A stretch of DNA of 64,000 nt from Candidatus Cloacimonadota bacterium. GTDB taxonomy: Bacteria; Cloacimonadota; Cloacimonadia; Cloacimonadales; TCS61. The notes under the pieces were generated by a model. It saw nothing but the letters and a program-made list of their open reading frames with translations, searched no databases and was not told where the DNA came from. The stretch covers positions 4,719 to 68,718 of the forward strand of contig DAOUTP010000001.1 of assembly GCA_030626645.1 (NCBI GenBank), in the 5' to 3' direction. How positions within the stretch are numbered: position 1 is the first letter of the stretch; every line of letters starts with the position of its first letter. The translations under genes and the position numbers were made by a program. This document shows, piece after piece, positions 21,316 to 63,518 of this stretch.

Positions 21316-21331
21316 TCTAATAATATTTTTG

Positions 21332-33831: not shown

Positions 33832-33861
33832 TAAACACGTACGGATTCACTTAGTAGTATA

Positions 33862-38233: not shown

Positions 38234-38424
38234 AAACAAACAAAGCAATGTACGAAGAACAACTTAATGAAAAAGGTAAGTTCTTCGAGAAAGAAAAATT
38301 TGTAATTGCCGGCAAATTTAGGGAGTATTACTACCCTAATCAATACGGTAAAGCTCTAAGATTGTATGATTACACATCTTACATAGTAGGATGGCATAAA
38401 TGGTACTGGTTATGGAAACGATAA
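38230..38424 (+). CDS. hypothetical protein
   Basis: 64-aa ORF. Confidence 0.5.
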   Translation: MKTNKAMYEEQLNEKGKFFEKEKFVIAGKFREYYYPNQYGKALRLYDYTSYIVGWHKWYWLWKR

Positions 38425-38672
38425 TAACAATTATTGGTATTATATTTATTGCTATTGTTCTTACTATTTTTGTTCTTAACCAACATCAAAAGAAATTTAA
38501 AAAGGACGTTAAAGCAGGAATAGTAAGACAATGTTCTTTCTTTATTGGTGAAGAAAGATGTCATGGTAAGGTGATGAACTACTTCCCGGAAACAGACAAA
38601 GTATCTATTACTTACTTTGATGGTGAAGGAACTAAAGTATGTACACGATTTTTAAATCAAATATATTTTTAA
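38400..38672 (+). CDS. small membrane protein
   Basis: 90 aa with an N-terminal TM-like stretch IITIIGIIFIAIVLTIFVL. Confidence 0.55.
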   Translation: MVLVMETIITIIGIIFIAIVLTIFVLNQHQKKFKKDVKAGIVRQCSFFIGEERCHGKVMNYFPETDKVSITYFDGEGTKVCTRFLNQIYF

Positions 38673-38740
38673 CGTAAAAAGGATACTACATTAGTATATG
38701 ATCTATAAAAAAATAGATCATATACAGTGTTATGCCCCAT

Positions 38741-38932
38741 TTAAGACCGCAAAGAGCGGATGGGCGATAATTTAACTATCCTGTACCCATTTATTGTAAT
38801 GTCCGTTTTTTTTAGGCGGCTAAATTGATATTCTAAAATATGCTTCTTAACTCCGATAAGTTTAGCAAGCGGAGGAACACTCCCGTATATGCCGGGAGTG
38901 TCAGTTTCTATGTGTCGTGTCCAAAATTCCAT
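38741..38932 (-). CDS. small DNA-binding-like protein (possible homing-endonuclease C-terminal remnant)
   Basis: 63 aa. IYGSVPPLAKLIGVKKHILEYQFSRLKK...INGYRI resembles the HTH/NUMOD-type tails of GIY-YIG/HNH homing enzymes. Weak. Confidence 0.4.
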   Translation of the reverse strand: MEFWTRHIETDTPGIYGSVPPLAKLIGVKKHILEYQFSRLKKTDITINGYRIVKLSPIRSLRS

Positions 38933-38933
38933 C

Positions 38934-39158
38934 TTATTTATTTCTTAATACTTTGCAGTTATCATATCCGTAATGTGATGCTACTGCATAATCAGATTCT
39001 TCAATGCCATATTCAAAAGCCTTTTCTTCTTCTAAATCGCAATTTTCTAAAAAGAAATCCATTATTTCTTCCTCAGTTGGGTATTCTTCGTTATTATCAT
39101 TCCACAATACATAAAAACTCTCGTTGTAATCTTCTAAGTTTAATTTTAAATTTGACAT
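38934..39158 (-). CDS. small acidic protein
   Basis: 74 aa, strongly acidic (EEYPTEEEIMDFFLENCDLEEE), upstream of 38741..38932 in the same unit. Confidence 0.5.
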   Translation of the reverse strand: MSNLKLNLEDYNESFYVLWNDNNEEYPTEEEIMDFFLENCDLEEEKAFEYGIEESDYAVASHYGYDNCKVLRNK

Positions 39159-39442
39159 CTTTTTTATTTTTAAATAATTACTTCGTTATAATTATAGTAC
39201 AAATATACGACCTTATATTGCTTTCTCAACACTGGAAAATAAAAGTTATTAACAATTTGATGGTTTTATATTGTTTTAAGAACGCAAAGGAAAAAACGGG
39301 GCATAACACTAAATATAGCCCATTTGGCTACAAAATTGGTCCCTGAATGACAAGTCGGTCAATGCCAAACGTGCCATATTTTTAACGTTGTACTCCGTAT
39401 ATTATTATTTTGCGAATATTTTGTATATTAAATAAATCATAT

Positions 39443-39450
39443 TATCTTTG
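39443..39450 (+). promoter_or_regulatory. -7 box TATCTTTG
   Basis: Exact consensus, 36 nt upstream of ATG 39487. Confidence 0.5.
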
Positions 39451-39486
39451 CGGCATAAATTTTAATGTTAATAAATTAATGTAACA

Positions 39487-40110
39487 ATGAAAACACAAGT
39501 ATTAATGAAAAGAGAATTATTTGGGAATGAAATATCTCAACAATCAAAAACCGGATTTTTTAATGCAACCGATTTAGTAAAAATTGGAAATAAATGGAGA
39601 AATAGCAGAAATTTACCTATTTTTAATTTTAGTGCATTTTTAAATAATGTAAAAACCAAAGAATTTATAGAGGAGCTAAATAATAAATATGATATTGTAA
39701 TTAGTAAAGGTAAAAGTAAAAATTCTTCAACTTGGGTACACCCATTATTATTTATAGATATTGCCCTTGCCATAAATTCTAAATTAAAAGTTGAAGTTTA
39801 CGAATGGATGTTTGATAACTTAATTAAGTTTAGAAATGATAGCGGAGATAGTTATAAAGAGATGAGTGCGGCTATATGGCAAAGATTTCAAAATAAAAGA
39901 GAATTTCCAAAATACATTACAAAAGTTGCTAATTATATACGCAAATCATGTGGAATAGATAAATGGGAAAACGCTACCGAATCACAACTAAAACTAAGAG
40001 ATAAAATACATTATTCTATTAAAACGCTTACTAATGTATTAACAAACACAGATGAAGCAGTAAGATTAGGGGTTAAAGAAAATATTGACGGTTGTTCTTT
40101 GCAGTCTTAA
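39487..40110 (+). CDS. KilA-N domain protein
   Basis: FFNATDLVKIGNKWR...STWVHPLLFIDIALAINSKLKVEVYEWMFD matches the KilA-N pattern (..T..H.diA.eFA.WiSpeFKl....). Confidence 0.6.
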   Translation: MKTQVLMKRELFGNEISQQSKTGFFNATDLVKIGNKWRNSRNLPIFNFSAFLNNVKTKEFIEELNNKYDIVISKGKSKNSSTWVHPLLFIDIALAINSKLKVEVYEWMFDNLIKFRNDSGDSYKEMSAAIWQRFQNKREFPKYITKVANYIRKSCGIDKWENATESQLKLRDKIHYSIKTLTNVLTNTDEAVRLGVKENIDGCSLQS

Positions 40111-40759
40111 TTGGTTTACTCATAGATGGGCAGGGGTATGTTGCTTTTAATTTAACCGACTTATTCTGCAATACTTTTATTATTACTCCTACATTTTCCT
40201 TATCAATATAAAACGGTGGATCAACCGGACAAACAGGAATCAAATAAAACATACTATCATCCGGTAACCATTCACATTCAACCATCATATCCTGAACCAT
40301 CTCTGTCATGTTATTGAAGTCCCAGATGCCTTTTGTTCCTCGAATGAATGTAAACTCTACCCGAACAGGATAACCCTTTACAGAGCCTTGAAATTGCTTT
40401 CTAAAACTAATGTATTGCTTTTTTGTTTCAATTTTGTACCTTTTTACTTGGTTACTGTCTGTAATAAAAGGTAATACAGGTTTTCCGTTGTATTTCCAAT
40501 TTGATTTTTTTGCTGATTTTTTCCAAATTTGTTTTGAATTTTTTGATGAATATACCTCTCCCCTAATGAAAATATCATTAGGGGAGATGGTGGGTTTATT
40601 TAGAACACCGGTGGGAAGTTCTGGTTTAATCGTGGGTAATCTCGTCAAGCTTTTCAGGCTTTTCTTCTTTGACGGCTTTAAGGTTGCTTTGTACTCCTTT
40701 AGGCTCATTTGGTTTATTAAACGGTATCCCGAATTGCTCGTAAGCTGCTTTTTTATCAT
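40073..40759 (-). CDS. RusA-like Holliday-junction resolvase (tentative)
   Basis: 228-aa ORF. The core IFIRGEVYSSKNSKQ...VRVEFTFIRGTKGIWDFNNMTEMVQDMMVECEWLPDDS recalls RusA (D.DN..K...D.L...DD). The start is uncertain: it overlaps 40626..41066 by at least 83 nt. Confidence 0.45.
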   Translation of the reverse strand: MIKKQLTSNSGYRLINQMSLKEYKATLKPSKKKSLKSLTRLPTIKPELPTGVLNKPTISPNDIFIRGEVYSSKNSKQIWKKSAKKSNWKYNGKPVLPFITDSNQVKRYKIETKKQYISFRKQFQGSVKGYPVRVEFTFIRGTKGIWDFNNMTEMVQDMMVECEWLPDDSMFYLIPVCPVDPPFYIDKENVGVIIKVLQNKSVKLKATYPCPSMSKPIKTAKNNRQYFL

Positions 40760-41066
40760 CTATTAATAATTTATCAATAGTATCTTTTCTTATTTGATTT
40801 GCTTGCATTTCAGATGAATAAAGTACATCAATTGCTATTTTTCTCCTTACTTGTATTTCAAAAAATTCAACTTCTTTAATTAAACGTTGTCTTAATGCTT
40901 CAAACCCGCTTCGTTCAGCTTTTTTTATAGCTGTTTCGGCTTCAATACTTTTCACTTTCCTTGTTGCAATATTACTTTCAGGAATCATATTACAAAGTTG
41001 TTGTGCATTCACTTTTCCAAATTCGCATATTTCATCGAATGTTGGTTTTTCTGTTTTTGTTTTCAT
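40626..41066 (-). CDS. hypothetical protein
   Basis: 146-aa ORF downstream of the SSB-like gene. Confidence 0.6.
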   Translation of the reverse strand: MKTKTEKPTFDEICEFGKVNAQQLCNMIPESNIATRKVKSIEAETAIKKAERSGFEALRQRLIKEVEFFEIQVRRKIAIDVLYSSEMQANQIRKDTIDKLLIDDKKAAYEQFGIPFNKPNEPKGVQSNLKAVKEEKPEKLDEITHD

Positions 41067-41075
41067 ATTTTATTT

Positions 41076-41771
41076 TTAAAATGGTAAATCATCAGCTCCT
41101 GGAACAGGTTCCTTTTCATCCTGAAATTCAGGAGGCATATCTTCATCTTGAATTTCAGGTGGTTTATCTTTAACATCTGGCACATTATCTTCACTAAAAT
41201 TATCTCCCGATTTTTCAGGTACAGTATCAAACTCAATTGTATTGAACAATGTTTCTAAGTTGTGAATCAGAAATTGATTAATTTTGTCATAATCTTTTAA
41301 ATCTTTTCCACCAACCTTAATTGGTTCACCATCTTTTCCCTTTACAGTAAGAATCATTTCATTCAATTCTTTCATGTTATGTTTCCATGGTAATTTTTCT
41401 TCATCATATTTAACATGAGCACATCCAAAATCATTCTTTGTATAAACTTTGATAGATAAGTTTCCCTGTTTGGTTATTGAAAGTAAAGAATTCATAATTC
41501 CTCTTCCTAAATATGAAAATGGTATTGATAAAATATAGAGTTCATCTTTATCTGCAAGTCTTAAAATAAGAACCTTATATTTCTCATCATTCCATTCTTT
41601 TTCTTTTATGGCTACCCCAATTAACTTTCCCCATACTTTTTCTTCTGAAGGGAGTTCTTCTGAAACCCCATCATTGTATTTTTTTATTTTCCATTTTATT
41701 GGTTCACCCTGTTTTGCACTTAAATTAAAGTACAAAAGGCTTTTGTAATCATTTCCACTTCCGTATCCCAT
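41076..41771 (-). CDS. single-stranded-DNA-binding-like protein (acidic DDLPF tail)
   Basis: 231 aa ending ...DEDMPPEFQDEKEPVPGADDLPF. This is the canonical SSB C-terminal tip (D-D-[IL]-P-F) after an acidic linker. OB-fold not verified. Confidence 0.5.
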   Translation of the reverse strand: MGYGSGNDYKSLLYFNLSAKQGEPIKWKIKKYNDGVSEELPSEEKVWGKLIGVAIKEKEWNDEKYKVLILRLADKDELYILSIPFSYLGRGIMNSLLSITKQGNLSIKVYTKNDFGCAHVKYDEEKLPWKHNMKELNEMILTVKGKDGEPIKVGGKDLKDYDKINQFLIHNLETLFNTIEFDTVPEKSGDNFSEDNVPDVKDKPPEIQDEDMPPEFQDEKEPVPGADDLPF

Positions 41772-41832
41772 TTTTATAATTTTTTGCTAAATTAATACTA
41801 TTTTTTTGTTTTTATAATTTTTTTGCATTTTA

Positions 41833-41864
41833 TTTCAAAAAAAAGGGGAAATTAATCCCCTTTT
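41833..41864 (-). terminator. intrinsic terminator
   Basis: Minus-sense AAAAGGGGA-ttaatt-TCCCCTTTT followed by a T-run, 3 nt after the stop of 41867..43096. Confidence 0.6.
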
Positions 41865-41866
41865 AT

Positions 41867-43096: not shown

Positions 43097-43152
43097 TTTT
43101 TCTAAATTTTAATTTATAATTTTAATTTGCAAATTTACGACTTTTTTTTGAA

Positions 43153-43275
43153 TCATTCATTTATTTTCTTTTGAATAATAGGTATCATGTTGTTCACTAC
43201 TTTTTCAATTTTGAAATTATTTCTTTCTTTGAATTTTACATCTTTTTGCCAGTCTATTGTTAATGTAATTTTCAT
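43153..43275 (-). CDS. possible 40-aa protein
   Basis: Own reading: MKITLTIDWQKDVKFKERNNFKIEKVVNNMIPIIQKKINE. Its ATG overlaps the upstream stop (ATGA). Confidence 0.35.
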   Translation of the reverse strand: MKITLTIDWQKDVKFKERNNFKIEKVVNNMIPIIQKKINE

Positions 43276-43562
43276 ATTTTTTCATTAATTAATAGTTGTC
43301 CTAATTCAATACGATTTTCTATTACTTTAACCGCATGTAAAACAGTTGCATGGTCTCTTTTAAATATCAATCCTACTTTTTTTGATTTATATTTTAATTT
43401 TGTTCTCAACAAATACATTATTACTTGTCTTGCTTCTACAATTTTTCTATGTTTATTTCTGCTTTTAATGTCTTTAACCGATACTTTGTATAATTTTGAT
43501 ATATTATCAATTATACTTAATTCTTTTAAAGGTATTAATGCAGGGGCGGTCATGTAGTTCAT
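43272..43562 (-). CDS. DnaA C-terminal (domain IV)-like DNA-binding protein
   Basis: KHRKIVEARQVIMYLLRTKLKYKSKKVGLIFKRDHATVLHAVKVIE matches the DnaA domain IV pattern (...aRqiAMYL.r.lt..s...IG..fg.rdHsTVlha...i). Confidence 0.6.
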   Translation of the reverse strand: MNYMTAPALIPLKELSIIDNISKLYKVSVKDIKSRNKHRKIVEARQVIMYLLRTKLKYKSKKVGLIFKRDHATVLHAVKVIENRIELGQLLINEKI

Positions 43563-43936: not shown

Positions 43937-44077
43937 TAAAGTAATTTGATTCTTTTACTCATTTTCAATGTTCGCAAATAATATTTACCTTTCATTTTCC
44001 CTTTTTTAAAAAAGGGAAGATTTGGGACTTCTTCCCTTTAATTGTTTTTATTACATTTAACACATAAAGGAAGGATT

Positions 44078-45030: not shown

Positions 45031-45057
45031 ATTCCTGTTAATTCAATTATAGTATTT

Positions 45058-50311: not shown

Positions 50312-50506
50312 TTAGAAAGGTATTTTAATTAAATTTTTATTTCTGATTTCATCTACTATTAAAATAGGGAGTTCGGTTTTAATTTTATACTGAATTACTT
50401 GTCGAACAAATTTTGATTTATTTATACCATATTTTTCTAATTTCCCTAAATTATTTACCATTTCGACAGTCATTCTAAATCTTTGTATTTCAGTTAATTT
50501 ACTCAT
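50312..50506 (-). CDS. ribbon-helix-helix DNA-binding protein, paralogue A
   Basis: MSKLTEIQRFRMTVEMVNNLGKLEKYGINKSKFVRQVIQYKI has a beta-strand-helix-helix layout. The track ORF starts 13 codons early. The first 15 codons plus 35 nt upstream are identical to paralogue B. Confidence 0.65.
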   Translation of the reverse strand: MSKLTEIQRFRMTVEMVNNLGKLEKYGINKSKFVRQVIQYKIKTELPILIVDEIRNKNLIKIPF

Positions 50507-50541
50507 AAATGTCCTACAAAAGGTGTGTATATCTACTGTTA
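50462..50541. repeat. 80-bp exact repeat, copy A
   Basis: Identical to 59520-59599. It ends at the GTTA core (50538-50541). Confidence 0.95.
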
Positions 50542-51010
50542 GCATTAATACTACGTAGCGGATCTAAATATCACTATCATACTATCGTGTTTCCCTTTGT
50601 TTTTAGTTGAGTATTCACCTTTTGTATTATATCCCTTAAATGCTATCCTACCCTTTATAAATCTAATTTCAGCATTTGGTAACATAAGTTCGTGAAATTG
50701 TTTTGTGCCTGTTGCACTTGGTATTAATAGCACACAAGTATTTCCTTTTTGCCATTCCTCGTAAGCCTTTTGTATAAATTTTGGTTTATTAACTCTATCA
50801 TAAGGAGGGTTAATAAAATTAGATTTTCCCCACCCGCATTCAAGCCCATCAAATTTTGCATTTAAAGGGCAAGGATCAAAGTCAAAGGCAAACTCTTGGT
50901 TTAGTTCATTATATAAATATTCTGGGGTTTTCCAATGGTTACTATTTTCTAATCCGTCTCTATTTTTCATATCAATTTTTGTTTTTAATTAAACCGTACT
51001 AATGCTAACA
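50537..51010. repeat. IR-bracketed unit 1 (TGTTAGCATTA / TAATGCTAACA, 11 bp)
   Basis: Arms at 50537-50547 and 51000-51010 are perfect reverse complements. Cargo is the Dam-type MTase. Confidence 0.85.
50551..50970 (-). CDS. phage Dam-family N6-adenine DNA methyltransferase (PF05869-like)
   Basis: HWKTPEYLYNELNQEFAFDFDPCP...NFINPPYDR...CVLLIPSATGTKQF shows WxTP, D-P-C and intact NPPY motifs. Confidence 0.75.
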   Translation of the reverse strand: MKNRDGLENSNHWKTPEYLYNELNQEFAFDFDPCPLNAKFDGLECGWGKSNFINPPYDRVNKPKFIQKAYEEWQKGNTCVLLIPSATGTKQFHELMLPNAEIRFIKGRIAFKGYNTKGEYSTKNKGKHDSMIVIFRSAT

Positions 51011-51048
51011 ATATGTAACAGGCATTAAAACGACCTGTTACACAAACC

Positions 51049-51298
51049 GTTATGTGGCATTTACAATACGGTTAATATCATTATGGAAATCTAAAGCATC
51101 ATCAATATTCATTCCTAACTCTAATCCAAGTTCTGCTGATGTGCACGTGCAAAAAGGATAGTCTTTTTTTATTAATCCATTTGCAGCCTTAGCACACTTT
51201 ATTGACCATAATAAATACTCTTTACCTCTTTTTGCTTTTAGTAGTCTTAATAAGTTTTGTTTATTGTGGAGTATTACTTTTAAATAACGCCACATAAC
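51049..51298. repeat. IR-bracketed unit 2 (GTTATGTGGC / GCCACATAAC, 10 bp)
   Basis: Arms at 51049-51058 (overlapping the stop) and 51289-51298 (inside the track ORF; contains an in-frame ATG). Confidence 0.85.
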
Positions 51299-51352
51299 AA
51301 TAGATAAAATCCATTGCTTAAATTGTGCTAACTTGTTAGTTTTATGTTTCAT
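51050..51352 (-). CDS. hypothetical protein
   Basis: Track ORF 51050..51397. Plausible starts are ATG 51352 (MKHKTNK...) or ATG 51295 inside the IR arm (MWRYLKV...). Confidence 0.5.
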   Translation of the reverse strand: MKHKTNKLAQFKQWILSIVMWRYLKVILHNKQNLLRLLKAKRGKEYLLWSIKCAKAANGLIKKDYPFCTCTSAELGLELGMNIDDALDFHNDINRIVNAT

Positions 51353-51414
51353 ATCAATATTATTATAAGTTTGAAAAATTATAATTCTAAATCGCAACGT
51401 ATCTTATCAAGAAC

Positions 51415-51645
51415 GTTATAAACAATTAACCAACTATTATAGTAGTTAATTGGTCTTGATAGTCTAATTTTGCATTTATAATACACTTATTTTTATCATC
51501 AAATGCTTTAGAGTGCCTAACTCTACCTTCTTCTTTGTTAATGTTTGTTGTTTCTGTTTGCTTCCATTTGTGTTGATTTCCAAATGGTATTATTTTATAT
51601 TCAAAATATTTCCCAGTTAATTTCATAATTTTATCAGTTTATAAC
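51415..51645. repeat. IR-bracketed unit 3 (GTTATAAAC / GTTTATAAC, 9 bp)
   Basis: Arms at 51415-51423 and 51637-51645, lying 2 nt past the stop and 10 nt before the ATG of 51426..51626. Confidence 0.85.
51426..51626 (-). CDS. hypothetical small protein
   Basis: 66-aa ORF, cargo of unit 3. Confidence 0.55.
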   Translation of the reverse strand: MKLTGKYFEYKIIPFGNQHKWKQTETTNINKEEGRVRHSKAFDDKNKCIINAKLDYQDQLTTIIVG

Positions 51646-51727
51646 ATCAGCTCATAAATAATAGCCGATGAAGATTAATACTATATTTCAAAGTTTGTGG
51701 TACGGCTACTATTCATAGCTGAGTACC
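51646..51727. repeat. inter-unit linker, copy a
   Basis: ATCAGCTCATAAATAATAGCCGATG...GGCTACTATTCATAGCTGAGTACC. Homologous to 52110-52190, 60991-61109 and 62450-62564. Confidence 0.8.
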
Positions 51728-52109
51728 GTTATAAAACATTTGCCACCGCACTAATTCAAGTCTTTTTTGTGACTCATGTTCCCATCTGTAATATGTACTT
51801 TTTTATCTGATAATTCGTCACTAAATGAATTACCGAGAAATCCCATAAGCATTCCAATTTTTGTATCGTAATGTGGATGGCATTCTTCATTGTATCCCTC
51901 TTCATCTGCTTTTTTACATACTGCACTAAATGTTTCTCTAATTTCTTTAGGTTGTATAAAATCTGGTTTGCAACAACTAAAGTCAGGGCAGCATTCATCA
52001 TCTACCTTGTTGTGTATTGGATTTCCTTTCACCCATTCTTCCAGTTGGTTGTTGCTTCTTTCTTTGTAATTATTTCCTTTTAAAGCCATCGCTCAAAACG
52101 TTTTATAAC
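51728..52109. repeat. IR-bracketed unit 4 (GTTATAAAAC / GTTTTATAAC, 10 bp)
   Basis: Arms at 51728-51737 and 52100-52109, the latter 10 nt before the ATG of 51751..52089. Confidence 0.85.
51751..52089 (-). CDS. hypothetical Cys-rich protein
   Basis: 112 aa with ECCPDFSCCKPDF...ECHPH. Cargo of unit 4. The overlapping frame 51774..52001 was rejected. Confidence 0.6.
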   Translation of the reverse strand: MALKGNNYKERSNNQLEEWVKGNPIHNKVDDECCPDFSCCKPDFIQPKEIRETFSAVCKKADEEGYNEECHPHYDTKIGMLMGFLGNSFSDELSDKKVHITDGNMSHKKDLN

Positions 52110-52190
52110 AACGGCTCATATTTAATTGCCGTTGTAAATTTGTGCTTAGTTTTGAAAGTTTATAGTTCGGCAACTAAACATAGCCAAACC
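52110..52190. repeat. inter-unit linker, copy b
   Basis: AACGGCTCATATTTAATTGCCGTTG...GGCAACTAAACATAGCCAAACC. Confidence 0.8.
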
Positions 52191-52562
52191 GTTAGCAGCA
52201 ATATTATTTTTTGCCACCGCACATTTCAACAGCAACTACATGCCCTACCTCCGCTTCTTCGTATGTAGCATATTTGTCTTGGTATTGGTCATGTTCTCCG
52301 CCAAATATCATTGTCTCAAACAATATAGGAGTGCCACCGCCAAATGAGTGGTCTAATCCTAAAAATACTGTTGAAACATTTACCTCTTTTGAAATCTCAG
52401 TTTTTGCAATATGTCTTTCGGCTGTCTCAAACCACTTAGCCCATTCCATCATATCATCAACTGTCTTAATTGTTTTCCCTTCTAAAATGTAATTTTTCAT
52501 CTTGTTTGTATTTTAATGTTTATAATTCCTTCCCTCAAATAAAAAATAAAAAAGCTGGTAAC
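52191..52562. repeat. IR-bracketed unit 5 (GTTAGCAGC / GCTGGTAAC, 9 bp, 1 mismatch)
   Basis: Arms at 52191-52199 and 52554-52562. Confidence 0.65.
52204..52500 (-). CDS. conserved phage protein of unknown function
   Basis: 98 aa. STVFLGLDHSFGGGTPILFETMIFGG...YATYEEAEVGH is a pattern I recognise from many phage hypotheticals. No function known. Confidence 0.65.
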   Translation of the reverse strand: MKNYILEGKTIKTVDDMMEWAKWFETAERHIAKTEISKEVNVSTVFLGLDHSFGGGTPILFETMIFGGEHDQYQDKYATYEEAEVGHVVAVEMCGGKK

Positions 52563-52609
52563 ACGTTGTAAAATTCATTGCGAAAAGCAACGAAATCTTA
52601 CAACCATAC

Positions 52610-52874
52610 GTTATAGGGCATTTAAGAATCCACCCCAGTTGAAAATAATGGCTTGCCACATTTGCAACATACAACCGCATAATCTTCGTTTGCATAATCT
52701 TGATAATATCCACATTCATCACCATTATCATAATCAATATCTTCCGAAAATTCTTTATTGGTATTAATTTCTTCCATTCTTTTTTCTATACATTCAAAGC
52801 AGTAGTAGTTGTCTTCATCTTCCCAAAATATCCAATTTGCTAATTCCTTATTCATAATAAAAACGCCCTATAAC
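52610..52874. repeat. IR-bracketed unit 6 (GTTATAGGGC / GCCCTATAAC, 10 bp)
   Basis: Arms at 52610-52619 and 52865-52874, lying 2 nt past the stop and 9 nt before the ATG of 52622..52855. Confidence 0.85.
52622..52855 (-). CDS. small acidic zinc-ribbon-like protein
   Basis: 77 aa with CFEC...CCKCG. Cargo of unit 6. Confidence 0.6.
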   Translation of the reverse strand: MNKELANWIFWEDEDNYYCFECIEKRMEEINTNKEFSEDIDYDNGDECGYYQDYANEDYAVVCCKCGKPLFSTGVDS

Positions 52875-58468: not shown

Positions 58469-59365
58469 TTATTGGCAAAAATATTTATGAACAGCCATAT
58501 TTTCTGCATTTTGTTTTTTTGAAATTCTGATATAATTCATAAAACCTTTCCATGTTGTATGCCCGGTTAACATTCTTACCATATTAGGATCCAATCCCGC
58601 TAAAACCATATTTGTTGCAGCACTCCTTCGTGCCGTATGGCTTGTAATAAGCTCATATTTGAGTTTAATGACATCTTTTTTACGTTTACCACCTCTGACC
58701 TCAGAAACAATGATTTTATCGTTGATGGAAGCCATTTCGCCTACACAACGTATTTTTTTAATAAATGTAGCAAGATTTTGAATTTTCAACTTTGAAAGAT
58801 CATAATCATATTTTTCTAAAATTTCCCGAACCATCCAATGAATAGGAATAATTACATGGCTTTGTGTTCTTTTGAAACCTTTGAATACATTTATTTTTAA
58901 AAAATCACCTTCCAAACTTTCAGGACGTATCTGAGTATAGTCTGATACCCGAAGTGTTGTGTGGGCACCAACCAAAAAAACATCTCTTATATGTTCTTCC
59001 TGGCCCGATAGATTTAATTCCCACATTCTTTCAAGTTCGACTGATGAAAGAACTATATGATCACAGTAAACCCAATTGAATTTGAATTCTTCATAGGGAT
59101 TTTTTAGTATTAAACCTTTTCTTATTGCTGACTTGATTATTTTTCTTAAATTAGAATGTTTTAATGAAATATAATTTGTTTTGTAGTCTTTATCTAATAA
59201 AAAATTATTGAAACTTTCTATGAATTCATAGTCAATATCCTTAAATTTAATATTTGAATTAAACTCATTTAATAACTTTAATGTTGTCATTTGAACATTA
59301 TAAGTAGTTAAGTTTAAGTTTCTGTTGTTTTTTAATTCGTTCTCGAAAAACTGGTTGAATGTCAT
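58469..59365 (-). CDS. tyrosine recombinase / integrase
   Basis: 298 aa with an N-terminal SAM-like core-binding region. The catalytic set is recognisable: TTLRVSD (Arg), HTARRS (His-x-x-Arg), LTGHTT (His), MNYIR (Tyr). Confidence 0.85.
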   Translation of the reverse strand: MTFNQFFENELKNNRNLNLTTYNVQMTTLKLLNEFNSNIKFKDIDYEFIESFNNFLLDKDYKTNYISLKHSNLRKIIKSAIRKGLILKNPYEEFKFNWVYCDHIVLSSVELERMWELNLSGQEEHIRDVFLVGAHTTLRVSDYTQIRPESLEGDFLKINVFKGFKRTQSHVIIPIHWMVREILEKYDYDLSKLKIQNLATFIKKIRCVGEMASINDKIIVSEVRGGKRKKDVIKLKYELITSHTARRSAATNMVLAGLDPNMVRMLTGHTTWKGFMNYIRISKKQNAENMAVHKYFCQ

Positions 59366-59369
59366 AATT

Positions 59370-59564
59370 TTAAAAAGGTATTTTTATTAAATTTTTCATT
59401 CTTTTTTCTTTTGCTAATAAAACAGAATAGTCTAAATTAATTTTTTCACGAATTGCCGTTCTTATAAATGTTGATTTTTTTATTCCAAATCTGGTTAAAT
59501 TGTTTAATTTTTCAACATCTTCGACAGTCATTCTAAATCTTTGTATTTCAGTTAATTTACTCAT
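59370..59564 (-). CDS. ribbon-helix-helix DNA-binding protein, paralogue B
   Basis: MSKLTEIQRFRMTVEDVEKLNNLTRFGIKKSTFIRTAIREKI. Lies 4 nt upstream of the integrase. Confidence 0.65.
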   Translation of the reverse strand: MSKLTEIQRFRMTVEDVEKLNNLTRFGIKKSTFIRTAIREKINLDYSVLLAKEKRMKNLIKIPF

Positions 59565-59599
59565 AAATGTCCTACAAAAGGTGTGTATATCTACTGTTA
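59520..59599. repeat. 80-bp exact repeat, copy B
   Basis: Identical to 50462-50541. It ends at the GTTA core (59596-59599). Confidence 0.95.
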
Positions 59600-59819
59600 T
59601 AAATCATTTACTCCTCTTCAAGTATTTGCTTTATCAGGTCGGCAGCCAAAATACGTTCAGCCTTTGTGTAGTTTTTCTCATACACTACATTTGTAACTAT
59701 TTTATACATATCATCCATCCTCTTGGTTTTACTCAAAGGCTTTCCACTCATTGGATGCCTTTGGTTTTTCTGTTGTTGAAACTTCGCAATAATATTTATC
59801 ATAAAAACGCTTTATAACA
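59595..59819. repeat. IR-bracketed unit 7 (TGTTATAAA / TTTATAACA, 9 bp)
   Basis: Arms at 59595-59603 and 59811-59819, lying 4 nt past the stop and 8 nt before the ATG of 59608..59802. Confidence 0.8.
59608..59802 (-). CDS. hypothetical small protein
   Basis: 64-aa ORF, cargo of unit 7. Confidence 0.55.
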   Translation of the reverse strand: MINIIAKFQQQKNQRHPMSGKPLSKTKRMDDMYKIVTNVVYEKNYTKAERILAADLIKQILEEE

Positions 59820-60034
59820 ATGTATATAAAAAATAAAAATCACTAACGTTCGTGCCGTCCGCAATTTTTGCACACTCTTGGGGCATTGGGGAAATCTAAC
59901 ACCCATCTGTTTGGTTTATACTCGTGGTCACACCACATTTGCTTCCATTTCAATCTTATCCAAATTTTAAAGTCTCCTATCATATCCGTAATTTTTAAAT
60001 TTTATATACTGGTCGTTATAAACCATAATTTGCC

Positions 60035-60277
60035 CTATATGTCACAATAGCATTTATTACACATAAGCCCTAAAATTGTTGGTTCACACTCTTCTTCACA
60101 GTTAGAGCAAATAACAGGTTTTATAACAACAGGTATAGTTAAATTTTTAACTTGCTCCTGTGCATATTCTTCCATAGCTTCTATAAATATGCTTAATGGT
60201 ATATCATCAAATCTTGCACTTTTATTCTTATCGTAAAAGTATTTAATGTGTTTGTCTAAAATCTTTTCTGCATTCAT
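60035..60277 (-). CDS. small Cys-rich protein
   Basis: 80 aa with CSNCEEEC...CNKCYC. Confidence 0.55.
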   Translation of the reverse strand: MNAEKILDKHIKYFYDKNKSARFDDIPLSIFIEAMEEYAQEQVKNLTIPVVIKPVICSNCEEECEPTILGLMCNKCYCDI

Positions 60278-60322
60278 ATCTGTATTTTTTATTCGTTAAA
60301 AATCAAACCATACCTGCGGCAC

Positions 60323-60990
60323 GTTAGGCAAAATGTTTAGCGACACTCTGCTCATCAGTTTGGTTTATCGGCATTATTAATATTTCAATATCATTCATTG
60401 AGAATAAACTCATAGAGTTCGGTTCTTTTTGAGATAGTAAAATAATTGAATCACTCTTTATATAATTAGCAATAGCAACTATTTTACTTAGATACTTCTC
60501 TTTAAATCGTGATTTTTTAATATCAATGAAATGATTTTTATCATATATTTTTCTACCTGTTTTTATTACATGGTTTTTGCTCAATTTTTTATCGCCATTA
60601 CAAACAGGGCAATCAAAGTAATCAGTATATCCCTCATATTCCCATTCAACTTCACCATTTCCTTCACATTCTTTACAAGTGTAGTCGCTTTCTACATTTC
60701 TAAATTCCTCAATTTTCGGTATACTGGTAATAGCCTCTTTTAATTCTGCTATCTTTATAGTGTATTTTAATTGTTTTTTATCAGGCATTATTCTTGCAAT
60801 ACTTTCTCTAATACTTTCTTTTATTGGTTCGTAATCATTTATGACACATTTCTTTGGCACTTTAATTAAAGCGTGTCCATCGGTAGCATAAACATAGTCG
60901 TCAATAATAAATGGTTCAATCATCCATTCTCTGTACGTGTCAGTACTGGTGAATAACTTTACAATTTCGTCATAAAACACTTTGCCTAAC
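60323..60990. repeat. IR-bracketed unit 8 (GTTAGGCAAA / TTTGCCTAAC, 10 bp)
   Basis: Arms at 60323-60332 (overlapping the stop) and 60981-60990 (inside the ORF at codons PLLGKV). Confidence 0.85.
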
Positions 60991-61046
60991 AACGGCTCAT
61001 AATTAATAGCCTTAGTTTTGTCGGTATTTTTACTATCTTTTTTCAT
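60324..61046 (-). CDS. hypothetical protein with DnaJ-type zinc knuckle
   Basis: 240 aa with CKECEGNGEVEW...CPVCNGDKK. The first 19 codons are encoded by linker copy c. Confidence 0.65.
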   Translation of the reverse strand: MKKDSKNTDKTKAINYEPLLGKVFYDEIVKLFTSTDTYREWMIEPFIIDDYVYATDGHALIKVPKKCVINDYEPIKESIRESIARIMPDKKQLKYTIKIAELKEAITSIPKIEEFRNVESDYTCKECEGNGEVEWEYEGYTDYFDCPVCNGDKKLSKNHVIKTGRKIYDKNHFIDIKKSRFKEKYLSKIVAIANYIKSDSIILLSQKEPNSMSLFSMNDIEILIMPINQTDEQSVAKHFA

Positions 61047-61109
61047 ATCAAGTTTATTTATAAGTTGAAATATTTGTCATTTTAAGTGGCTACTAATCAT
61101 AGCCAAACC
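60991..61109. repeat. inter-unit linker, copy c (partly coding)
   Basis: AACGGCTCATAATTAATAGCCTTAG...GGCTACTAATCATAGCCAAACC. Confidence 0.8.
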
Positions 61110-61360
61110 GTTATAGCCAATTAAGGCTTAATGTCTGTGGTTTTTACGGTCTTGCATAAATTAACAATGCTAATACAGTCTCTGCAATCAACTTTTTCTT
61201 TGGTTCTAATTCCCTTATTTATATCAAGCCCCGGGTCACCAGCTGTCTCAAGCCCACACAAGGTATAATCATTACTTACTGCATCAACATGAACCAAATT
61301 ATCATATCCTGTTTTTATTTTAATATGGAGTGCCATTCTCTAAAATTAACTGGCTATAAC
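61110..61360. repeat. IR-bracketed unit 9 (GTTATAGCCA / TGGCTATAAC, 10 bp)
   Basis: Arms at 61110-61119 and 61351-61360, lying 1 nt past the stop and 14 nt before the ATG of 61121..61336. Confidence 0.85.
61121..61336 (-). CDS. small Cys-containing protein
   Basis: 71 aa with TLCG...CRDC. Cargo of unit 9. Confidence 0.55.
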   Translation of the reverse strand: MALHIKIKTGYDNLVHVDAVSNDYTLCGLETAGDPGLDINKGIRTKEKVDCRDCISIVNLCKTVKTTDIKP

Positions 61361-61478
61361 AATGTATATAAAAAATACAGGGTGTCAGCCTAATTTATGC
61401 AGTTATACCACTTTTTTAAATTCTGTGAGTATCAGGTAGGTTACCGCTTCTATCTCCTGTACTTTTCATATACTTAAC

Positions 61479-61736
61479 GTTAAGCACAAGCTACTTTTTG
61501 TCAATTAATGTAACAAATTGCTTACTGTTTTTCGTTCCAATAAAACCACCATATCCTTTAATATTCCATTTGTATTTAGGTTTTGGTAATGGGAATTTAA
61601 GTGTATCCCATTTAGCACCATTATTTGTGTCTGCAATAAAGTGGTTATCAGTAGTTATTCCGCAATTTGACCATCCATCAGGGTACTCTACTTGTATTGT
61701 TCTTTCTTTTCGTTTTGCAAACCGCCAGTGCTTAAC
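61479..61736. repeat. IR-bracketed unit 10 (GTTAAGCAC / GTGCTTAAC, 9 bp)
   Basis: Arms at 61479-61487 and 61728-61736 (inside the ORF at codons SVKH). Confidence 0.8.
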
Positions 61737-61790
61737 ACTAAATATAGCAAATTTGCTTCTGTTCTTTGGGTATTGTTCTTCGTTATTCAT
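61491..61790 (-). CDS. hypothetical protein
   Basis: 99-aa ORF. The N-terminal 19 codons (..KFAIFS) are encoded by the shared flank. Confidence 0.55.
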   Translation of the reverse strand: MNNEEQYPKNRSKFAIFSVKHWRFAKRKERTIQVEYPDGWSNCGITTDNHFIADTNNGAKWDTLKFPLPKPKYKWNIKGYGGFIGTKNSKQFVTLIDKK

Positions 61791-61850
61791 TTTGTATATA
61801 ATTTAAAAGTTTGTAATTTTTTTCTAAGGCAAACTTGCCATATTATTTCC

Positions 61851-61957
61851 GTTAGCGGTCAGTTTTTTATTTCTAAACCGCAGTATTTGCATATGAACTT
61901 ATCTCCTTTAGGTATTGCTGTTCTGGTCAGGCAGGAGCAAAAAACCGAACCGCTAAC
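61851..61957. repeat. IR pair 11 (GTTAGCGGT / ACCGCTAAC, 9 bp) enclosing only the last ~30 codons of an ORF
   Basis: Arms at 61851-61859 and 61949-61957. Confidence 0.7.
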
Positions 61958-62107
61958 ATGCGGTATATTGCAGTTTTTTACTACCTTATCCTCCAACCAT
62001 TTTACATAATATTCAGAGAAAGTTATTGGTTGTCCTAACCAATCTGGAATTTCACAACCTTTCCCTGTCTCATTATCAAATTGCTCTCTTAATTTTTTTC
62101 TATTCAT
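61859..62107 (-). CDS. small Cys-rich protein
   Basis: 82 aa with CSC...CKYCG. Confidence 0.55.
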   Translation of the reverse strand: MNRKKLREQFDNETGKGCEIPDWLGQPITFSEYYVKWLEDKVVKNCNIPHVSGSVFCSCLTRTAIPKGDKFICKYCGLEIKN

Positions 62108-62156
62108 ATATTTAGTATTTTAATTCCGTAAAAAAACCACACTATACCGCCAGAGT

Positions 62157-62449
62157 GTTATGCCCCATAAGGCTATCTATCATATTCTTTAAAGAAATCA
62201 TCAACATCCATTTGCCCACCATCCTCAAAGTTCCCTTTTGTGGTGTTCAGAAACCTTTCAAGCTCTCTACGTATGTCATTTTTGTCAAGGTCAGTTTTTC
62301 CTTCACTCTTCAAATACTCTTTAAATTCATCTTTGCACTCCCAACATACATATCCTACACTTGGTACATAAATGTCACACATTATATTTTCGCATTCTTT
62401 TCTGCTACAGCTCATTACTCCCATGTTTTCTAAATTTACGGGGCATAAC
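62157..62449. repeat. IR-bracketed unit 12 (GTTATGCCCC / GGGGCATAAC, 10 bp)
   Basis: Arms at 62157-62166 and 62440-62449. Same arm sequence as the unit at 38726-39310 but different cargo. Confidence 0.85.
62173..62424 (-). CDS. small Cys-rich protein
   Basis: The track ORF begins at an ATG that is part of the IR arm. The likelier start is ATG 62424 (MGVMSCSRKECENIMCD...CWEC). Confidence 0.55.
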   Translation of the reverse strand: MGVMSCSRKECENIMCDIYVPSVGYVCWECKDEFKEYLKSEGKTDLDKNDIRRELERFLNTTKGNFEDGGQMDVDDFFKEYDR

Positions 62450-62564
62450 AACGGCTCATAAATAATAGCGGTTGTAGTGCTTATCCCAAGTTTATACTAT
62501 ATTTTTAATTTCGTTCATTAATCTAAATTCTGTGGTTTGTTTCCGCTACTATTCATAGCCCAAC
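62450..62564. repeat. inter-unit linker, copy d
   Basis: AACGGCTCATAAATAATAGCGGTTG...CGCTACTATTCATAGCCCAAC. Confidence 0.8.
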
Positions 62565-63022
62565 GTTACCCATAATACTACAAGTAACTTTCCATATCAG
62601 ATTTTACCTTGTCTAAATGGGTACTATTTTTTATTGTTTCTAATATTTTACCATCTTCAACTTTATAAAGAATAGCAAATAACTCTATCTTATCATTTTC
62701 AAACGAAAATACTGCAACGTAATCTTCTGTAATATCTCCACCTTTTGGAAAATCAAGTGATAAGTATATTCTTTTTGCACCGTTATTTTTATACTCGGCA
62801 AATCTTCTATAATAAGAAGCAACATCTCCACCTAATGCTAATGCGTTTATTTCAAACTTACTATCTTTTGTTTCTGCAAAAAGTTGAAATGGATAATGTC
62901 CGTAACATTCACTATCTTCTATAAAATCTACTTTTACCATTGTTTTTACAAATTCTTCTACTGTTTTCATTTTTATATAATTTTAAAGTTAATATTTCAA
63001 TTTAAACCGTACTATGGGTAAC
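62565..63022. repeat. IR-bracketed unit 13 (GTTACCCAT / ATGGGTAAC, 9 bp)
   Basis: Arms at 62565-62573 and 63014-63022. Cargo is 62578..62970. Confidence 0.8.
62578..62970 (-). CDS. hypothetical protein
   Basis: 130-aa ORF, cargo of unit 13. Confidence 0.65.
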   Translation of the reverse strand: MKTVEEFVKTMVKVDFIEDSECYGHYPFQLFAETKDSKFEINALALGGDVASYYRRFAEYKNNGAKRIYLSLDFPKGGDITEDYVAVFSFENDKIELFAILYKVEDGKILETIKNSTHLDKVKSDMESYL

Positions 63023-63098
63023 ACTAAATATACCCCATATTCCGTTGCACTCCATACGGTGCATATTCTTGTCCGTTAGTTTTTTTAAAAAAAAAACA

Positions 63099-63518
63099 TT
63101 ACAACCACATTGAGTTATCTATTGCAGCTCTCCCACAAATAGAACAGGCTACACTACCACCCCTAACATTTTCAAAATGTTTCTCGTAATTTTCAGGAGT
63201 ATTCTCAACTCTATCACCATTTTCCAAAAACAATAAACTTAAATCTTCATTGCATTCATGGTCTGTCGGTTCGCCACCACACATTATAGCAGTAGCATTT
63301 CCGAGTTTTACTATTTTACAACCTTGTCTCATATATATGTAATTTACCATTTGCTTCAGAAATTTTATTATCATTTCCATTTCAAAATTTTCTGAAGCAA
63401 ATGATAAATAATCAACCGGATTTTCGTAATGATGTCGGTTTCTTTCAATATGATCTTTAAGATGACTAAATTTCACTGTATTATTATGCAATTTTTTCCA
63501 TTTACGTACTCCTTTCAT
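63099..63518 (-). CDS. hypothetical Cys-containing protein, first gene of the long minus operon
   Basis: 139-aa ORF (CGGEPTDHEC...CSICG) directly behind the TATCTTTG box. Confidence 0.65.
   Translation of the reverse strand: MKGVRKWKKLHNNTVKFSHLKDHIERNRHHYENPVDYLSFASENFEMEMIIKFLKQMVNYIYMRQGCKIVKLGNATAIMCGGEPTDHECNEDLSLLFLENGDRVENTPENYEKHFENVRGGSVACSICGRAAIDNSMWL

Follow-up and report, generated by a model that had tools for sequence, protein, structure and literature searches.

The closest described counterparts of the locus reported here are the gene cassettes and attC sites of integrons. An attC site has inverted AAC...GTT cores around an imperfect hairpin with a bulged base, one strand of which folds better than the other. 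Each cassette opens with bases complementary to the inverse core of its far end, stop codons frequently fall within a ...TAAC box, conserved sites accompany unrelated cargo, and the cassettes are small, mostly promoterless accessory open reading frames (ORFs), including DNA methyltransferases. All of these features recur in the window, by which we mean the whole stretch of 64,000 nucleotides that was analyzed. The window differs from an integron in having neither an integron integrase nor a recognised attI, and its ORFs lie on the folding strand (the reverse of the usual arrangement), often starting inside the hairpin loop. Its R-box stems are 9-17 bp long with a conserved G.T pair, compared with 7 bp in attC, its loops reach about 90 nt, and it has two invariant G.U-type pairs. 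In addition, arrays of the type found in the window have Bacteroidota-type hosts, whereas integrons are rare in Bacteroidota.

Two other systems are built on inverted sites. On Acinetobacter plasmids, pdif modules consist of genes bracketed by inverted XerC/XerD sites. Like the units described here, they are discrete modules with different cargo, inverted sites, both orientations and many contexts, but the pdif site is a 28-bp, 11-6-11 double-stranded site of constant sequence, whereas the arms in the window vary and the folded hairpin is conserved. The pdif model was rejected, since arms of 9-17 bp are unit-specific, only GTTA/TAAC is constant, and no conserved 28-bp site is present. In Bacteroidales invertons and shufflons, a segment containing a promoter is flanked by inverted repeats and a tyrosine recombinase is encoded close by, an arrangement that the window resembles down to its Bacteroidota setting. 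Unlike invertons, the family in the window has a fixed polarity, no common arm sequence and no evidence of two orientations.

Further counterparts have been described in phages. Qi et al. (2023, PMC9892861) reported attC clusters (CALINs) in virulent phages, and the sites that they cloned carry ...ATAAC/GTTAT... boxes, as in the window. IntI1 recombined five of the six phage attC sites tested, at G|TT; the one failure, P12002L_attC1, which had been predicted by HattCI, is the tested site closest to the elements studied here (PMC9892861). The PeSLs of T4-type phages (Arbiol et al. 2010, PMC2839356; Comeau et al. 2014, PMC4122927) resemble the window as short stem-loop intergenic elements around variable ORFs in hyperplastic early regions, marking modular exchange points, and circular intermediates have been proposed for them too. 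However, PeSLs are direct repeats with a strong sigma-70-like promoter and a terminator and recombine by homology, whereas the units in the window are bracketed by unit-specific inverted repeats and have their breakpoints in a 4-nt core.

The inverted repeat and its cargo

The sequence-only reading of this DNA had picked out a perfect 13-bp inverted repeat around two minus-strand ORFs and a promoter box, set among plus-strand genes (Table 1). The repeat, the ORFs and the plus-strand neighbours (38400..38672 and 39487..40110, the latter a KilA-N gene) were confirmed in the sequence, and the stem formed by the GGGGCATAACACT arm continues with a G.T and TTT/AAA pairs to a total of 17 pairs. The Bacteroidota-type -7 box TATATTTG is also present on the minus strand, at 39200-39207 and not at 39191-39198 as first given, with a match to TTGAGA-16-TATATT at 39202-39229. 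As had been claimed, the arm core GTTATGCCCC/GGGGCATAAC recurs at a second unit (62157-62166 and 62440-62449) and at no other locus in the window; four core-arm matches were observed compared with 1.4 expected, a number reached in 2 of 100 shuffles. The right flank AACACTAAATATAGC occurs without mismatch at 39305 and 61734, and with a single mismatch at 63020.

Bare 13-mer inverted repeats are not rare in this 71-kb genome of 30% G+C (39 pairs vs about 7 in shuffles). Those with at least six G/C within 1.5 kb were found at three loci, compared with 0.05 expected per shuffled window, and any such repeat was present in only 4% of shuffles. The main statistical support is the family pattern rather than the single 13-bp repeat.

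Both cargo ORFs have conserved homologues (57% and 77% identity) and are therefore real genes. Neither matched a Pfam, NCBIfam, PHROG or PDB family, and their low-confidence structure models gave no significant fold match. The model of ORF 38741..38932 (pLDDT 62) gave only non-significant helix-turn-helix-type matches, and its product is probably a small helix-turn-helix-type protein. The proposed resemblance of this ORF to the DNA-binding tail of homing endonucleases was dropped, as the cargo had no family or significant fold match.

Table 1. Features of the window, with positions counted from its first nucleotide.
Feature	Position	Strand	Basis or remark
Reconstructed cassette, 658 bp	38730..39387 (about)	-	inferred from family geometry
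Left box of resident site (inferred), GGATACTAC + spacer ATTA	38681..38693	+	sequence
Resident perfect hairpin GTATATGATCTAT, A6 loop, ATAGATCATATAC	38694..38725		fold
Left arm AGTGTTATGCCCC	38726..38738		ORF-sense 3' arm GGGGCATAAC(ACT), R-box half
Cargo ORF, 63 aa	38741..38932	-	homologue P0003, 77% identity
Cargo ORF, 74 aa, acidic	38934..39158	-	homologue P0002, 57% identity
Promoter-like site of the cassette	39200..39229	-	consensus match only
Right arm GGGGCATAACACT	39298..39310		ORF-sense 5' arm AGT-GTTATGCCCC
C-type imperfect hairpin of the cassette, AAATATGGCACGTTTGGC ... GCCAAATGGGCTATATTT	39311..39381	-	minimum-energy fold, minus strand only
AAC-G|TTGTACTCC	39384..39396	+	upstream core (CAAC in ORF sense) and inferred right box of resident site
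Second copy of 80-nt block	50462..50541	-	closes array 1, runs into paralogous ORF 50312..50545
Cassette array 1	50537..52874	-	bracketed units
Unit ORFs of array 1	50551..50970 (DNA methyltransferase), 51050..51352, 51426..51626, 51751..52089, 52204..52500 (1 mismatch), 52622..52855	-
Compact hairpin site GCCACATAAC-GGTTTG-TGTAACAGG-TCGTTTTAATG-CCTGTTACA-TAT-TGTTAGC	51007..51058	-
Tyrosine recombinase (SAM_5 + Phage_integrase)	58469..59365	-
80-nt block starting at TAAC core	59520..59599	-	identical to 50462-50541
Cassette array 2	59586..63100	-	units separated by A-, B- and C-type hairpins
Unit ORFs of array 2	59608..59802, 60324..61046, 61121..61336, 61491..61790, 62173..62424, 62578..62970	-
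Unit with the same arms, TGTTATGCCCC/GGGGCATAACA	62156..62450	-	around Cys-rich ORF 62173..62424 (phrog_22735)

Cassette arrays in the window

The block had been called isolated, which is true of its position only. The window contains at least 12 units (11 of which lie at 50.5-63 kb), each running from GTTA plus a variable extension to the complementary extension plus TAAC, with conserved imperfect hairpins between the units; 12 perfect brackets of GTTA plus 5-6 nt at ORF boundaries were convincing. Arm sequences vary between units, and the sole constant is GTTA/TAAC. Small cassettes with this one junction grammar make up about one fifth of the early region of the phage. The flagged cassette has its own -7 box, but no such minus-strand box (TAnnTTTG) occurs between the array cassettes; the nearest ones are at 63540, which is upstream of the array, at 62860, within an ORF, and at 53479.

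Each array is closed by one of two identical 80-nt blocks, of which the one at array 2 runs into a ribbon-helix-helix-like ORF (59370..59564) adjoining the recombinase gene. This terminal block had no match in the other collected loci or IMG/VR.

The pairing of cognate arms was tested with arms set from ORF coordinates alone; too few cases resulted when two consecutive detected hairpins served to define a unit. Of 6 possible Watson-Crick pairs, cognate arms formed 4.0 (five or more in 8 of 15 units), compared with 1.8 for non-cognate combinations (five or more in 3 of 210) and 1.4 for arms facing each other across a hairpin. Arms are specific to the opposite end of their own unit, on unrelated viral contigs as well. 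Among 50 structure-defined hairpins on unrelated contigs, an exact 9-nt partner was found downstream in 16 vs 1 in the upstream control, and 10-nt partners in 10 vs 0.

The earlier observation that the same arms can enclose different cargo now extends to at least five cargos for GTTATGCCCC-type arms, and a 21-nt 3' frame (GTCTTAAAAATGGGGCATAAC) is common to unrelated cargos. A shared coding N-terminus (AINYEPLLGKV, KFAIFSV) was rejected as the cause of conservation, since the same arm occurs in different frames or in non-coding sequence.

Exchange of units between viral contigs

In blastn and tblastn comparisons, only the hairpin elements matched other contigs (75-97% identity), the flanking ORFs being unrelated, and the conserved block begins exactly at TAAC. 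Two scans with 15-mers gave mostly chance matches, which were filtered by context. On one side of T|AAC, contigs L048 and L050 have 3,770 nt at 99.6% identity, and their sequences on the opposite side are unrelated. Three contigs from three samples (L260, L261 and L262) have 99.1-99.9% identity as far as ...ATGGGGCATAACGG, beyond which each goes on into a different sequence, TAACGG being all that the three continuations have in common; the unit in these contigs carries a 77% homologue of the cargo ORF63 and ends with the same 3' arm, ATGGGGCATAAC. Contigs L264 and L268 have a single module in common, of about 330 nt, with TAAC cores at both ends. These three independent contig sets switch to unrelated sequence exactly at the core, in support of the claim that the units are exchanged as DNA, and the cassettes were exchanged whole. 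In the homologous methyltransferase cassette of L048 (52% amino acid identity), the loop is the same, the stem changes are compensated, and the arms are different yet self-complementary.

Hairpin fold and strand bias

The TAAC-hairpin-GTTA elements are 45-140 nt long, and inverted AAC...GTT cores bound the imperfect palindrome. Double compensatory changes were found at 10 of the 18 consensus hairpin pairs, and the consensus includes two invariant G.U wobble pairs, a conserved bulged G and an asymmetric bulge. With RNA parameters, the long hairpins are the minimum-energy fold on the ORF-sense strand only (z -2 to -2.9), and as single-stranded DNA they are marginally better than shuffles (z -0.6 to -1.6). 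In all 17 tested elements the ORF-sense strand was the more stable one, and in about 22 of 25 units the ORF is found on the stable strand of the hairpin. The hairpin at 39311-39381 likewise has the polarity of the ORFs of its cassette, and its arm family recurs at 61734 and 63020, in phi10:1 and at several other loci. The arms are located in the 5'UTR and at the stop codon, with their G.T continuation conserved, and no T-run follows the hairpins. The compact site at 51007-51058 has the same architecture as P12002L_attC1 and an identical loop; after attC1, the P12002L sequence continues with GTTAGGCAC, the gp35 methyltransferase and GTGCCTAAC.

Reconstruction of the flagged cassette

With a probability of roughly 0.55, we read the flagged block as a mobile gene cassette of the integron/attC type, as in the attC clusters (CALINs) of phages. 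Every unit, read on the plus strand, consists of G|TTA-extension, cargo (here on the opposite strand), complementary extension-TAAC, an imperfect hairpin and the next G|TTA. The two arms together make up the basal stem (R box) of one hairpin site; in a circular cassette they would adjoin each other, and the cargo would come between them after opening at the core. In each cassette the initial bases complement the inverse core of the 3' end, and by analogy with integrons such ends would be the signature of a G|TT crossover and of a circular form, with strand exchange probably on a folded single strand.

The 13-bp arms had been taken as the ends of the element. Judged from the geometry of the family, they are instead internal halves of one basal stem, and the cassette would extend over about 38730-39387 and include the hairpin at 39311-39381, its order in ORF sense being hairpin, 5' arm, T-run, promoter, two ORFs and 3' arm. 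It may have been inserted by recombination into a resident hairpin site placed between the plus-strand gene and the KilA-N promoter (38681-38729 and 39388-39396), with a putative G|TT crossover at the core of that site between 38729 and 38730 at the left end and a right junction between 39387 and 39388. The resident hairpin at 38694-38725 separates the cassette from the stop of ORF 38400..38672, and its z-scores as single-stranded DNA are -4.3 and -4.8 for the two strands. The GGATACTAC box and GTTGTACTCC (39387-39396) are imperfect complements (8 of 10 positions, one gap), which is only suggestive of 38681-38693 as the left box of the resident site. In this reconstruction, the cassette and the resident site have about 4-5 nt in common at the junction. 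The polarity of the resident site, and not that of the neighbouring genes, would set the orientation of the cassette, and for this reason the cassette would sit backwards and need its own promoter.

No empty site, circle or relative of the flagged cassette was found, so that its outer boundary and resident site are reconstructions. The predicted empty junction, ...ATAGATCATATACAGTG|TTGTACTCCGTATATT..., had no match in IMG/VR, and the circle junction is predicted to read ...ATGGGGCATAA|CGTTAAAAATATGG.... In an exact-protein look-up the flanking gene had no match and the cargo matched only the same phage, which is present in NCBI and in Logan run SRR22839553, and a metagenome search with the flanking protein gave no match. 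The relatives of KilA-N were too distant to serve as a comparison for an empty site, no relative of the recombinase of the window was found in IMG/VR, and the best DnaB match in a search for whole-phage relatives had 43% identity.

Alternative explanations

It is possible, with distinctly lower probability, that the hairpins are conserved intergenic linkers like the PeSLs of T4-type phages, that is, regulatory or RNA hairpins, and that the cassettes are shuffled by homologous or microhomology recombination or by template switching between co-infecting phages, with no dedicated site-specific recombinase. Conserved linkers around unrelated ORFs in hyperplastic early regions, marking exchange points, fit this explanation (cf. 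PMC2839356, PMC4122927), as do conserved 3' frames of at least 21 nt and the failure to find a dedicated recombinase. A crossover anywhere in a hairpin keeps the brackets and is invisible if the hairpins are identical, as with L048/L050, and the breakpoints could in principle come from recombination within short conserved linkers. However, the right-hand partners of L260, L261 and L262 have little more in common than the core, and the reconstructed overlap of cassette and resident site is about 4-5 nt. Host-type promoter boxes do not occur in the linkers, and the promoter half of a PeSL is therefore missing; that unit ends stay complementary through wholesale sequence change is also left unexplained. 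A primarily RNA-level device appears unlikely, in which a long-range 5'/3' stem and a local hairpin around each cistron of a long early transcript would serve processing (e.g., by RNase III), stability or translational control, mobility being incidental. The ORF-sense bias of the fold, the two invariant G.U pairs with the conserved G.T continuation of the arms, and the position of the arms would all suit such a device, and the compensated arms in orthologous cassettes point to continuous selection for pairing, but alone it does not explain the nucleotide-exact exchange at TAAC or the AAC/GTT cores common to experimentally recombined phage attC sites, and no known RNA family matched. The sequence-only reading had favored DNA over a purely RNA-level role. 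Module exchange bears out the DNA role, whereas folding in ORF sense only and the invariant G.U pairs make a purely DNA reading too strong and leave room for an RNA role, which may coexist with the DNA role instead of replacing it.

Inversion had been proposed as well, and an inverton in which the 13-bp repeats are sites where a phage tyrosine recombinase flips the two-gene block is very unlikely. The perfect repeat does surround a promoter-carrying block opposite to its neighbours, a tyrosine recombinase is encoded in the window, and one Logan contig from this phage stops within the block, at 38817. Free inversion would randomise polarity, and the fixed polarity of ORFs with respect to the hairpin beside them (about 22 of 25 units, and the same in the flagged block) thus counts against it; the cassette, including its hairpin, appears to be oriented as a whole by the resident site and not flipped between its arms. 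Additionally, the arms differ per unit with no common recombinase-binding sequence beyond GTTA, and homologues of the recombinase are not associated with such units. Scarcely credible is a small transposon with terminal inverted repeats, or a MITE-like element, carrying cargo: the 13-bp repeats are perfect and the same arms occur at a second locus, but the flanks (...CATATAC| and |AAATATAGC) have no target-site duplication, the unit has no transposase, arm sequences are not constant between units, and the comparative boundaries lie at the TAAC core, with the hairpin included outside the repeat.

Candidate recombinases

The reading as an integron-type cassette raises the question of what cuts and joins the cassettes, as no integron integrase is visible in the window: the only tyrosine recombinase, the product of 58469..59365, scored 18.5 bits against the integron-integrase model TIGR02249, which has a cut-off of 265. 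The N-terminal domain of this recombinase is SAM_5, not SAM_4-type, its relatives form a broad, generic Bacteroidota integrase family, and it had no sequence match in PDB. A role as the cassette enzyme found no support, and no hairpins or arrays were found near its homologues in five contexts in other phages. P12002L has no annotated integrase.

A rather doubtful extension is that Bacteroidota phages own a cassette-exchange system independent of the integron integrase, in which a non-integron enzyme moves the cassettes, the attC-like hairpins act on the ORF-sense strand, the same fold is present in the mRNA, and ORFs start in the hairpin loop. Candidate components here would be the SAM_5-type recombinase, its ribbon-helix-helix partner and the 80-nt terminal site in the role of an attI; elsewhere, the enzyme might be a phage or host protein not yet recognised as such. 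If true, this would be a system for shuffling phage accessory genes that was invented in parallel with integrons or is distantly related to them.

Implications and distribution

If site-specific recombination moves these cassettes, phages would gain an integron-like means to acquire and reshuffle methyltransferases, small DNA-binding proteins and possible anti-defence genes. Because of its nucleotide-exact breakpoints, the compensated arms in orthologous cassettes and the invariant wobble pairs, the family is a clean natural data set for questions on integrons, namely how unrelated ORFs come to carry the same recombination site, how the strand is chosen and what role the folded site has in mRNA. 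In addition, the GTTA...TAAC bracket is a simple marker for cassette boundaries and true start codons in these phages.

A-type hairpins had no match in species-representative bacterial genomes, and the matches of C-type hairpins in the bacterial search were in MAG contigs only. Many uncultured viral contigs carry the junction grammar and its elements, as do cultured phages of Cellulophaga and Polaribacter and Bacteroidales-binned contigs.

Bracketed small ORFs in the window

The window encodes a tailed phage (large terminase, virion proteins, DnaB, UvrD-nuclease, a RusA-like protein, and methyltransferases); neither the cultured phages nor IMG/VR contained a close relative. Nearly all small ORFs of two minus-strand modules (50.5-53 kb and 59.6-63.1 kb) had GTTA and 5-6 variable bases in front of them, with the complement of those bases and then TAAC behind. 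When arms were taken from ORF coordinates alone and scored as Watson-Crick pairs out of 6, cognate arms gave 4.0/6 pairs (at least 5 in 8 of 15 units), non-cognate combinations 1.8/6 (at least 5 in 3 of 210), and arms facing one another across an intergenic hairpin 1.4/6. The stems extend inward via a conserved G.T and then a short T/A run.

The perfect 13-bp inverted repeat, the two enclosed ORFs, and the plus-strand neighbours on both sides that the sequence-only reading described were confirmed for the flagged unit; the right-hand neighbour encodes a KilA-N protein. That reading called the unit isolated, which holds only in part, as it is a member of a family with many bracketed small ORFs in the window. 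Further copies of its 10-nt arm core were found only at the two sites in the table, and its stem has 17 pairs in total, inward extension included. 13-mer inverted repeats by themselves were common in the window sequence (30% G+C), and those with at least 6 G/C within 1.5 kb were observed at 3 loci vs 0.05 expected per shuffled window. Conserved homologues of both cargo ORFs were found elsewhere, and the proposed resemblance of ORF63 to homing endonucleases was not borne out.

Features of the window
Feature	Position	Strand	Remark
Flagged unit, left arm	38726-38738		AGTGTTATGCCCC
Flagged unit, right arm	39298-39310		GGGGCATAACACT
ORF63	38741..38932	-	63 aa
ORF74	38934..39158	-	74 aa
TATATTTG box	39200-39207	-	nine bases from its earlier placement
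Arm core, further copies	62157-62166; 62440-62449
Right flank AACACTAAATATAGC, repeats	61734; 63020		second with one mismatch
Resident hairpin	38694-38725		perfect 13-bp stem, z about -4.5
Putative cassette	38730-39387		reconstructed; plus-strand coordinates
C-type hairpin of putative cassette	39381-39311		ORF-sense order
Promoter-like site of putative cassette	39229-39200		ORF-sense order
Array 1	50537..52874	-
Array 2	59586..63100	-
-7 box	63540		upstream of array 2
Hairpin loops tied to AAACTT	62447-62567; 61734-61853; 60987-61112; 52106-52193; 51637-51737
ORFs starting within a hairpin loop	60324..61046; 61491..61790
Methyltransferase cassette	50551..50970
Element resembling P12002L_attC1	51007-51058
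Tyrosine recombinase	58469..59365
80-nt block	59520-59599; 50462-50541		100% identical
Ribbon-helix-helix-like ORFs	59370..59564; 50312..50545		paralogous
Inverted repeat GGGATCGGTAATCAT	31388-31402/31458-31472		complement 70 nt away
13-bp hairpin	40557-40587		40557/40575
39-nt palindrome, 87%	33738-33834		adjoins minus-/plus-strand module switch
tRNA-Met	21331-21404	-	boundary of structural and next module

An ATG and a TAA occur within arms of the GTTATG.../...CATAAC type (39298-39307, 62440-62449, and comparison locus L264). In L264 and a second locus, L268, one ORF could span from the arm's ATG (MPRF...) to a stop within the opposite arm, and in the flagged unit this ATG begins a 12-codon mini-ORF (MPRFFLCVLKTI). 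Additionally, a Logan contig (SRR22839553), 100% identical to window 38817-45158, terminates at 38817 inside ORF63; either a break in coverage or structural heterogeneity at the cassette might explain this end. The other G+C-rich or long inverted repeats of the table (31388-31402/31458-31472, 33738-33834, and 40557-40587) all lack GTTA/TAAC cores.

Hairpin elements between the units

Imperfect hairpins of 45-140 nt, in several sequence types with one common design, occupy the interval from TAAC to the next GTTA. A-type elements (n=18; window and other contigs) showed double compensatory changes at 10 of 18 consensus pairs, two essentially invariant G.U pairs (18/18 and 17/18), and one G bulged in every case. 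All 17 hairpin elements tested were more stable on one strand, and about 22 of 25 bracketed units had the ORF on the strand with the more stable hairpin. With RNA parameters, the hairpin was the minimum-energy fold on the ORF-sense strand only (z -2 to -2.9), and ssDNA folding was marginal. The sense-strand polarity and invariant G.U pairs are suggestive of an additional role for the fold in mRNA; the elements matched no known RNA family.

A box search of the arrays found no host-type -7 boxes between cassettes. Bacteroidota-type boxes (TAnnTTTG) were nearly absent between the cassettes at 50.3-53.5 kb and 59.3-63.7 kb, so each array resembles a long operon. Five of 7 long hairpin loops contained AAACTT, roughly 15-40 nt ahead of the following start codon; the motif may serve as a phage-specific promoter or a translation signal. 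Where a cassette ORF starts within a hairpin loop, as also in L264 and L268, the right hairpin arm and GTTA arm become part of the protein (AINYEPLLGKV, KFAIFSVKHW, LGIGAVMPRF); L283, a 1.3 kb MAG contig, reads the same arm in another frame (AICLYLVLA, signal-peptide-like in appearance).

Conserved junctions and exchange at the core

Junction motifs with full hairpin context were found in many IMG/VR contigs, Cellulophaga phage phi10:1, and MAG contigs with Bacteroidales and other taxonomic assignments. Matches between the window and these loci were limited to the hairpin elements (75-97% identity), the flanking ORFs being unrelated in DNA and protein. In the window and three outside contigs (L025, L045, L051), the conserved block begins exactly at TAAC and continues through hairpin, GTTA plus extension, and 5'UTR to ATG, and unrelated ORFs have the 3' frame GGCAAATGTTTTATAA(C) in common. 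Among 50 structure-defined hairpins, an exact 9-nt partner occurred downstream in 16 vs 1 in the upstream control, and an exact 10-nt partner in 10 vs 0. Since the arm sequence is non-coding at some loci and differently framed at others, arm conservation is at the nucleic-acid level.

Two short MAG contigs with C-type elements, L283 ('Mycoplasma sp.') and L282 ('bacterium'), probably represent pieces of phage genomes placed in bacterial bins, so their organism labels may mislead about the host. In phi10:1 (5960-6070), the annotated gp033 start falls inside a C-type element, and the true start is probably an ATG further downstream, after an A-rich stretch.

On one side of T|AAC, contigs L048 and L050 were 99.6% identical (3,770 nt); beyond it they were unrelated. 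Contigs L260, L261, and L262, from three samples, carry a 77% homologue of ORF63 ending with the same arm as the flagged unit, ATGGGGCATAAC; they were 99.1-99.9% identical as far as TAACGG, followed by three different sequences. The sole common part of L264 and L268 was one module of about 330 nt (88-94% identity), in the order TAAC core, hairpin, GTTATGCC(C/A)CG, and ORF, up to GGGGCATAAC. Taken together, these comparisons locate the switch within the four-base TAAC core, and the switches in near-identical contigs support the earlier inference of DNA-level exchange. Inversion of the flagged unit found no support, nor did 38726-39310 as its boundaries.

Between the methyltransferase cassette and its L048 homologue (52%), the hairpin loop is unchanged and stem changes are compensated; their arms are entirely different, each pair still being self-complementary. 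Thus the two arms behave like a single hairpin element's basal stem, split by cargo.

Comparison with known systems and the enzyme question

Clusters of attC sites without integrase occur in virulent phages (Qi et al. 2023, PMC9892861). IntI1 recombined 5 of 6 cloned phage sites at G|TT, and the sixth, P12002L_attC1, failed the assay (PMC9892861). These sites have the same ...ATAAC/GTTAT... boxes as the window sites, and P12002L_attC1 has its architecture and loop TCGTTTTAATG in common with one window element. Downstream of attC1, P12002L follows the window's bracket rule: GTTAGGCAC, gp35 methyltransferase, GTGCCTAAC. Every window site, taken along the plus strand, follows the canonical sequence of parts (G|TTA, cargo, TAAC, hairpin, G|TTA). 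In this reading the 'bottom' strand folds better and also carries the ORFs. Typical integron cassettes have the opposite arrangement of ORF and folding strand. Besides having ORFs on the folding strand, the window cassettes are unusual for their long R-box stems, their invariant wobble pairs, and the lack of IntI.

An integron-like cassette of the 'CALIN' kind known from phages is the best reading of the flagged unit. In ORF-sense order, it would read CAA|C-GTT, the C-type hairpin, AGT-GTTATGCCCC, and a T-run, followed by the promoter-like site, ORF74 and ORF63, and ATGGGGCATAA|C. From the flanks, the resident site was plausibly GGATACTAC-ATTA, 13-bp hairpin, AGT-G|TTGTACTCC, and insertion at its G|TT would account for both observed junctions. 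Because resident-site polarity sets orientation, the cassette would be opposed to local transcription and need its own promoter.

Alternatively, modules could be exchanged by recombination between short conserved linkers, the mechanism put forward for the promoter-early stem-loops of T4-type phages (PMC2839356, PMC4122927). Where partners have a linker in common, this could give the same visible breakpoints; it fits poorly where just TAACGG is common (L260-L262), and it leaves the compensated arms of the methyltransferase cassettes unexplained.

No integron integrase was found in the window, and P12002L has no annotated integrase. The tyrosine recombinase between the two arrays, adjoining a ribbon-helix-helix-like ORF, is a member of a broad Bacteroidota integrase family; no arrays were found near its homologues in the other phage contexts examined. 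The 80-nt block, starting exactly at a TAAC core, lies at the downstream end of both arrays, and its copies run into the ribbon-helix-helix-like ORFs, which elsewhere share only some 70% identity. The recombinase is directly adjacent to one copy, and the block may be an attI-like or attP-like site.
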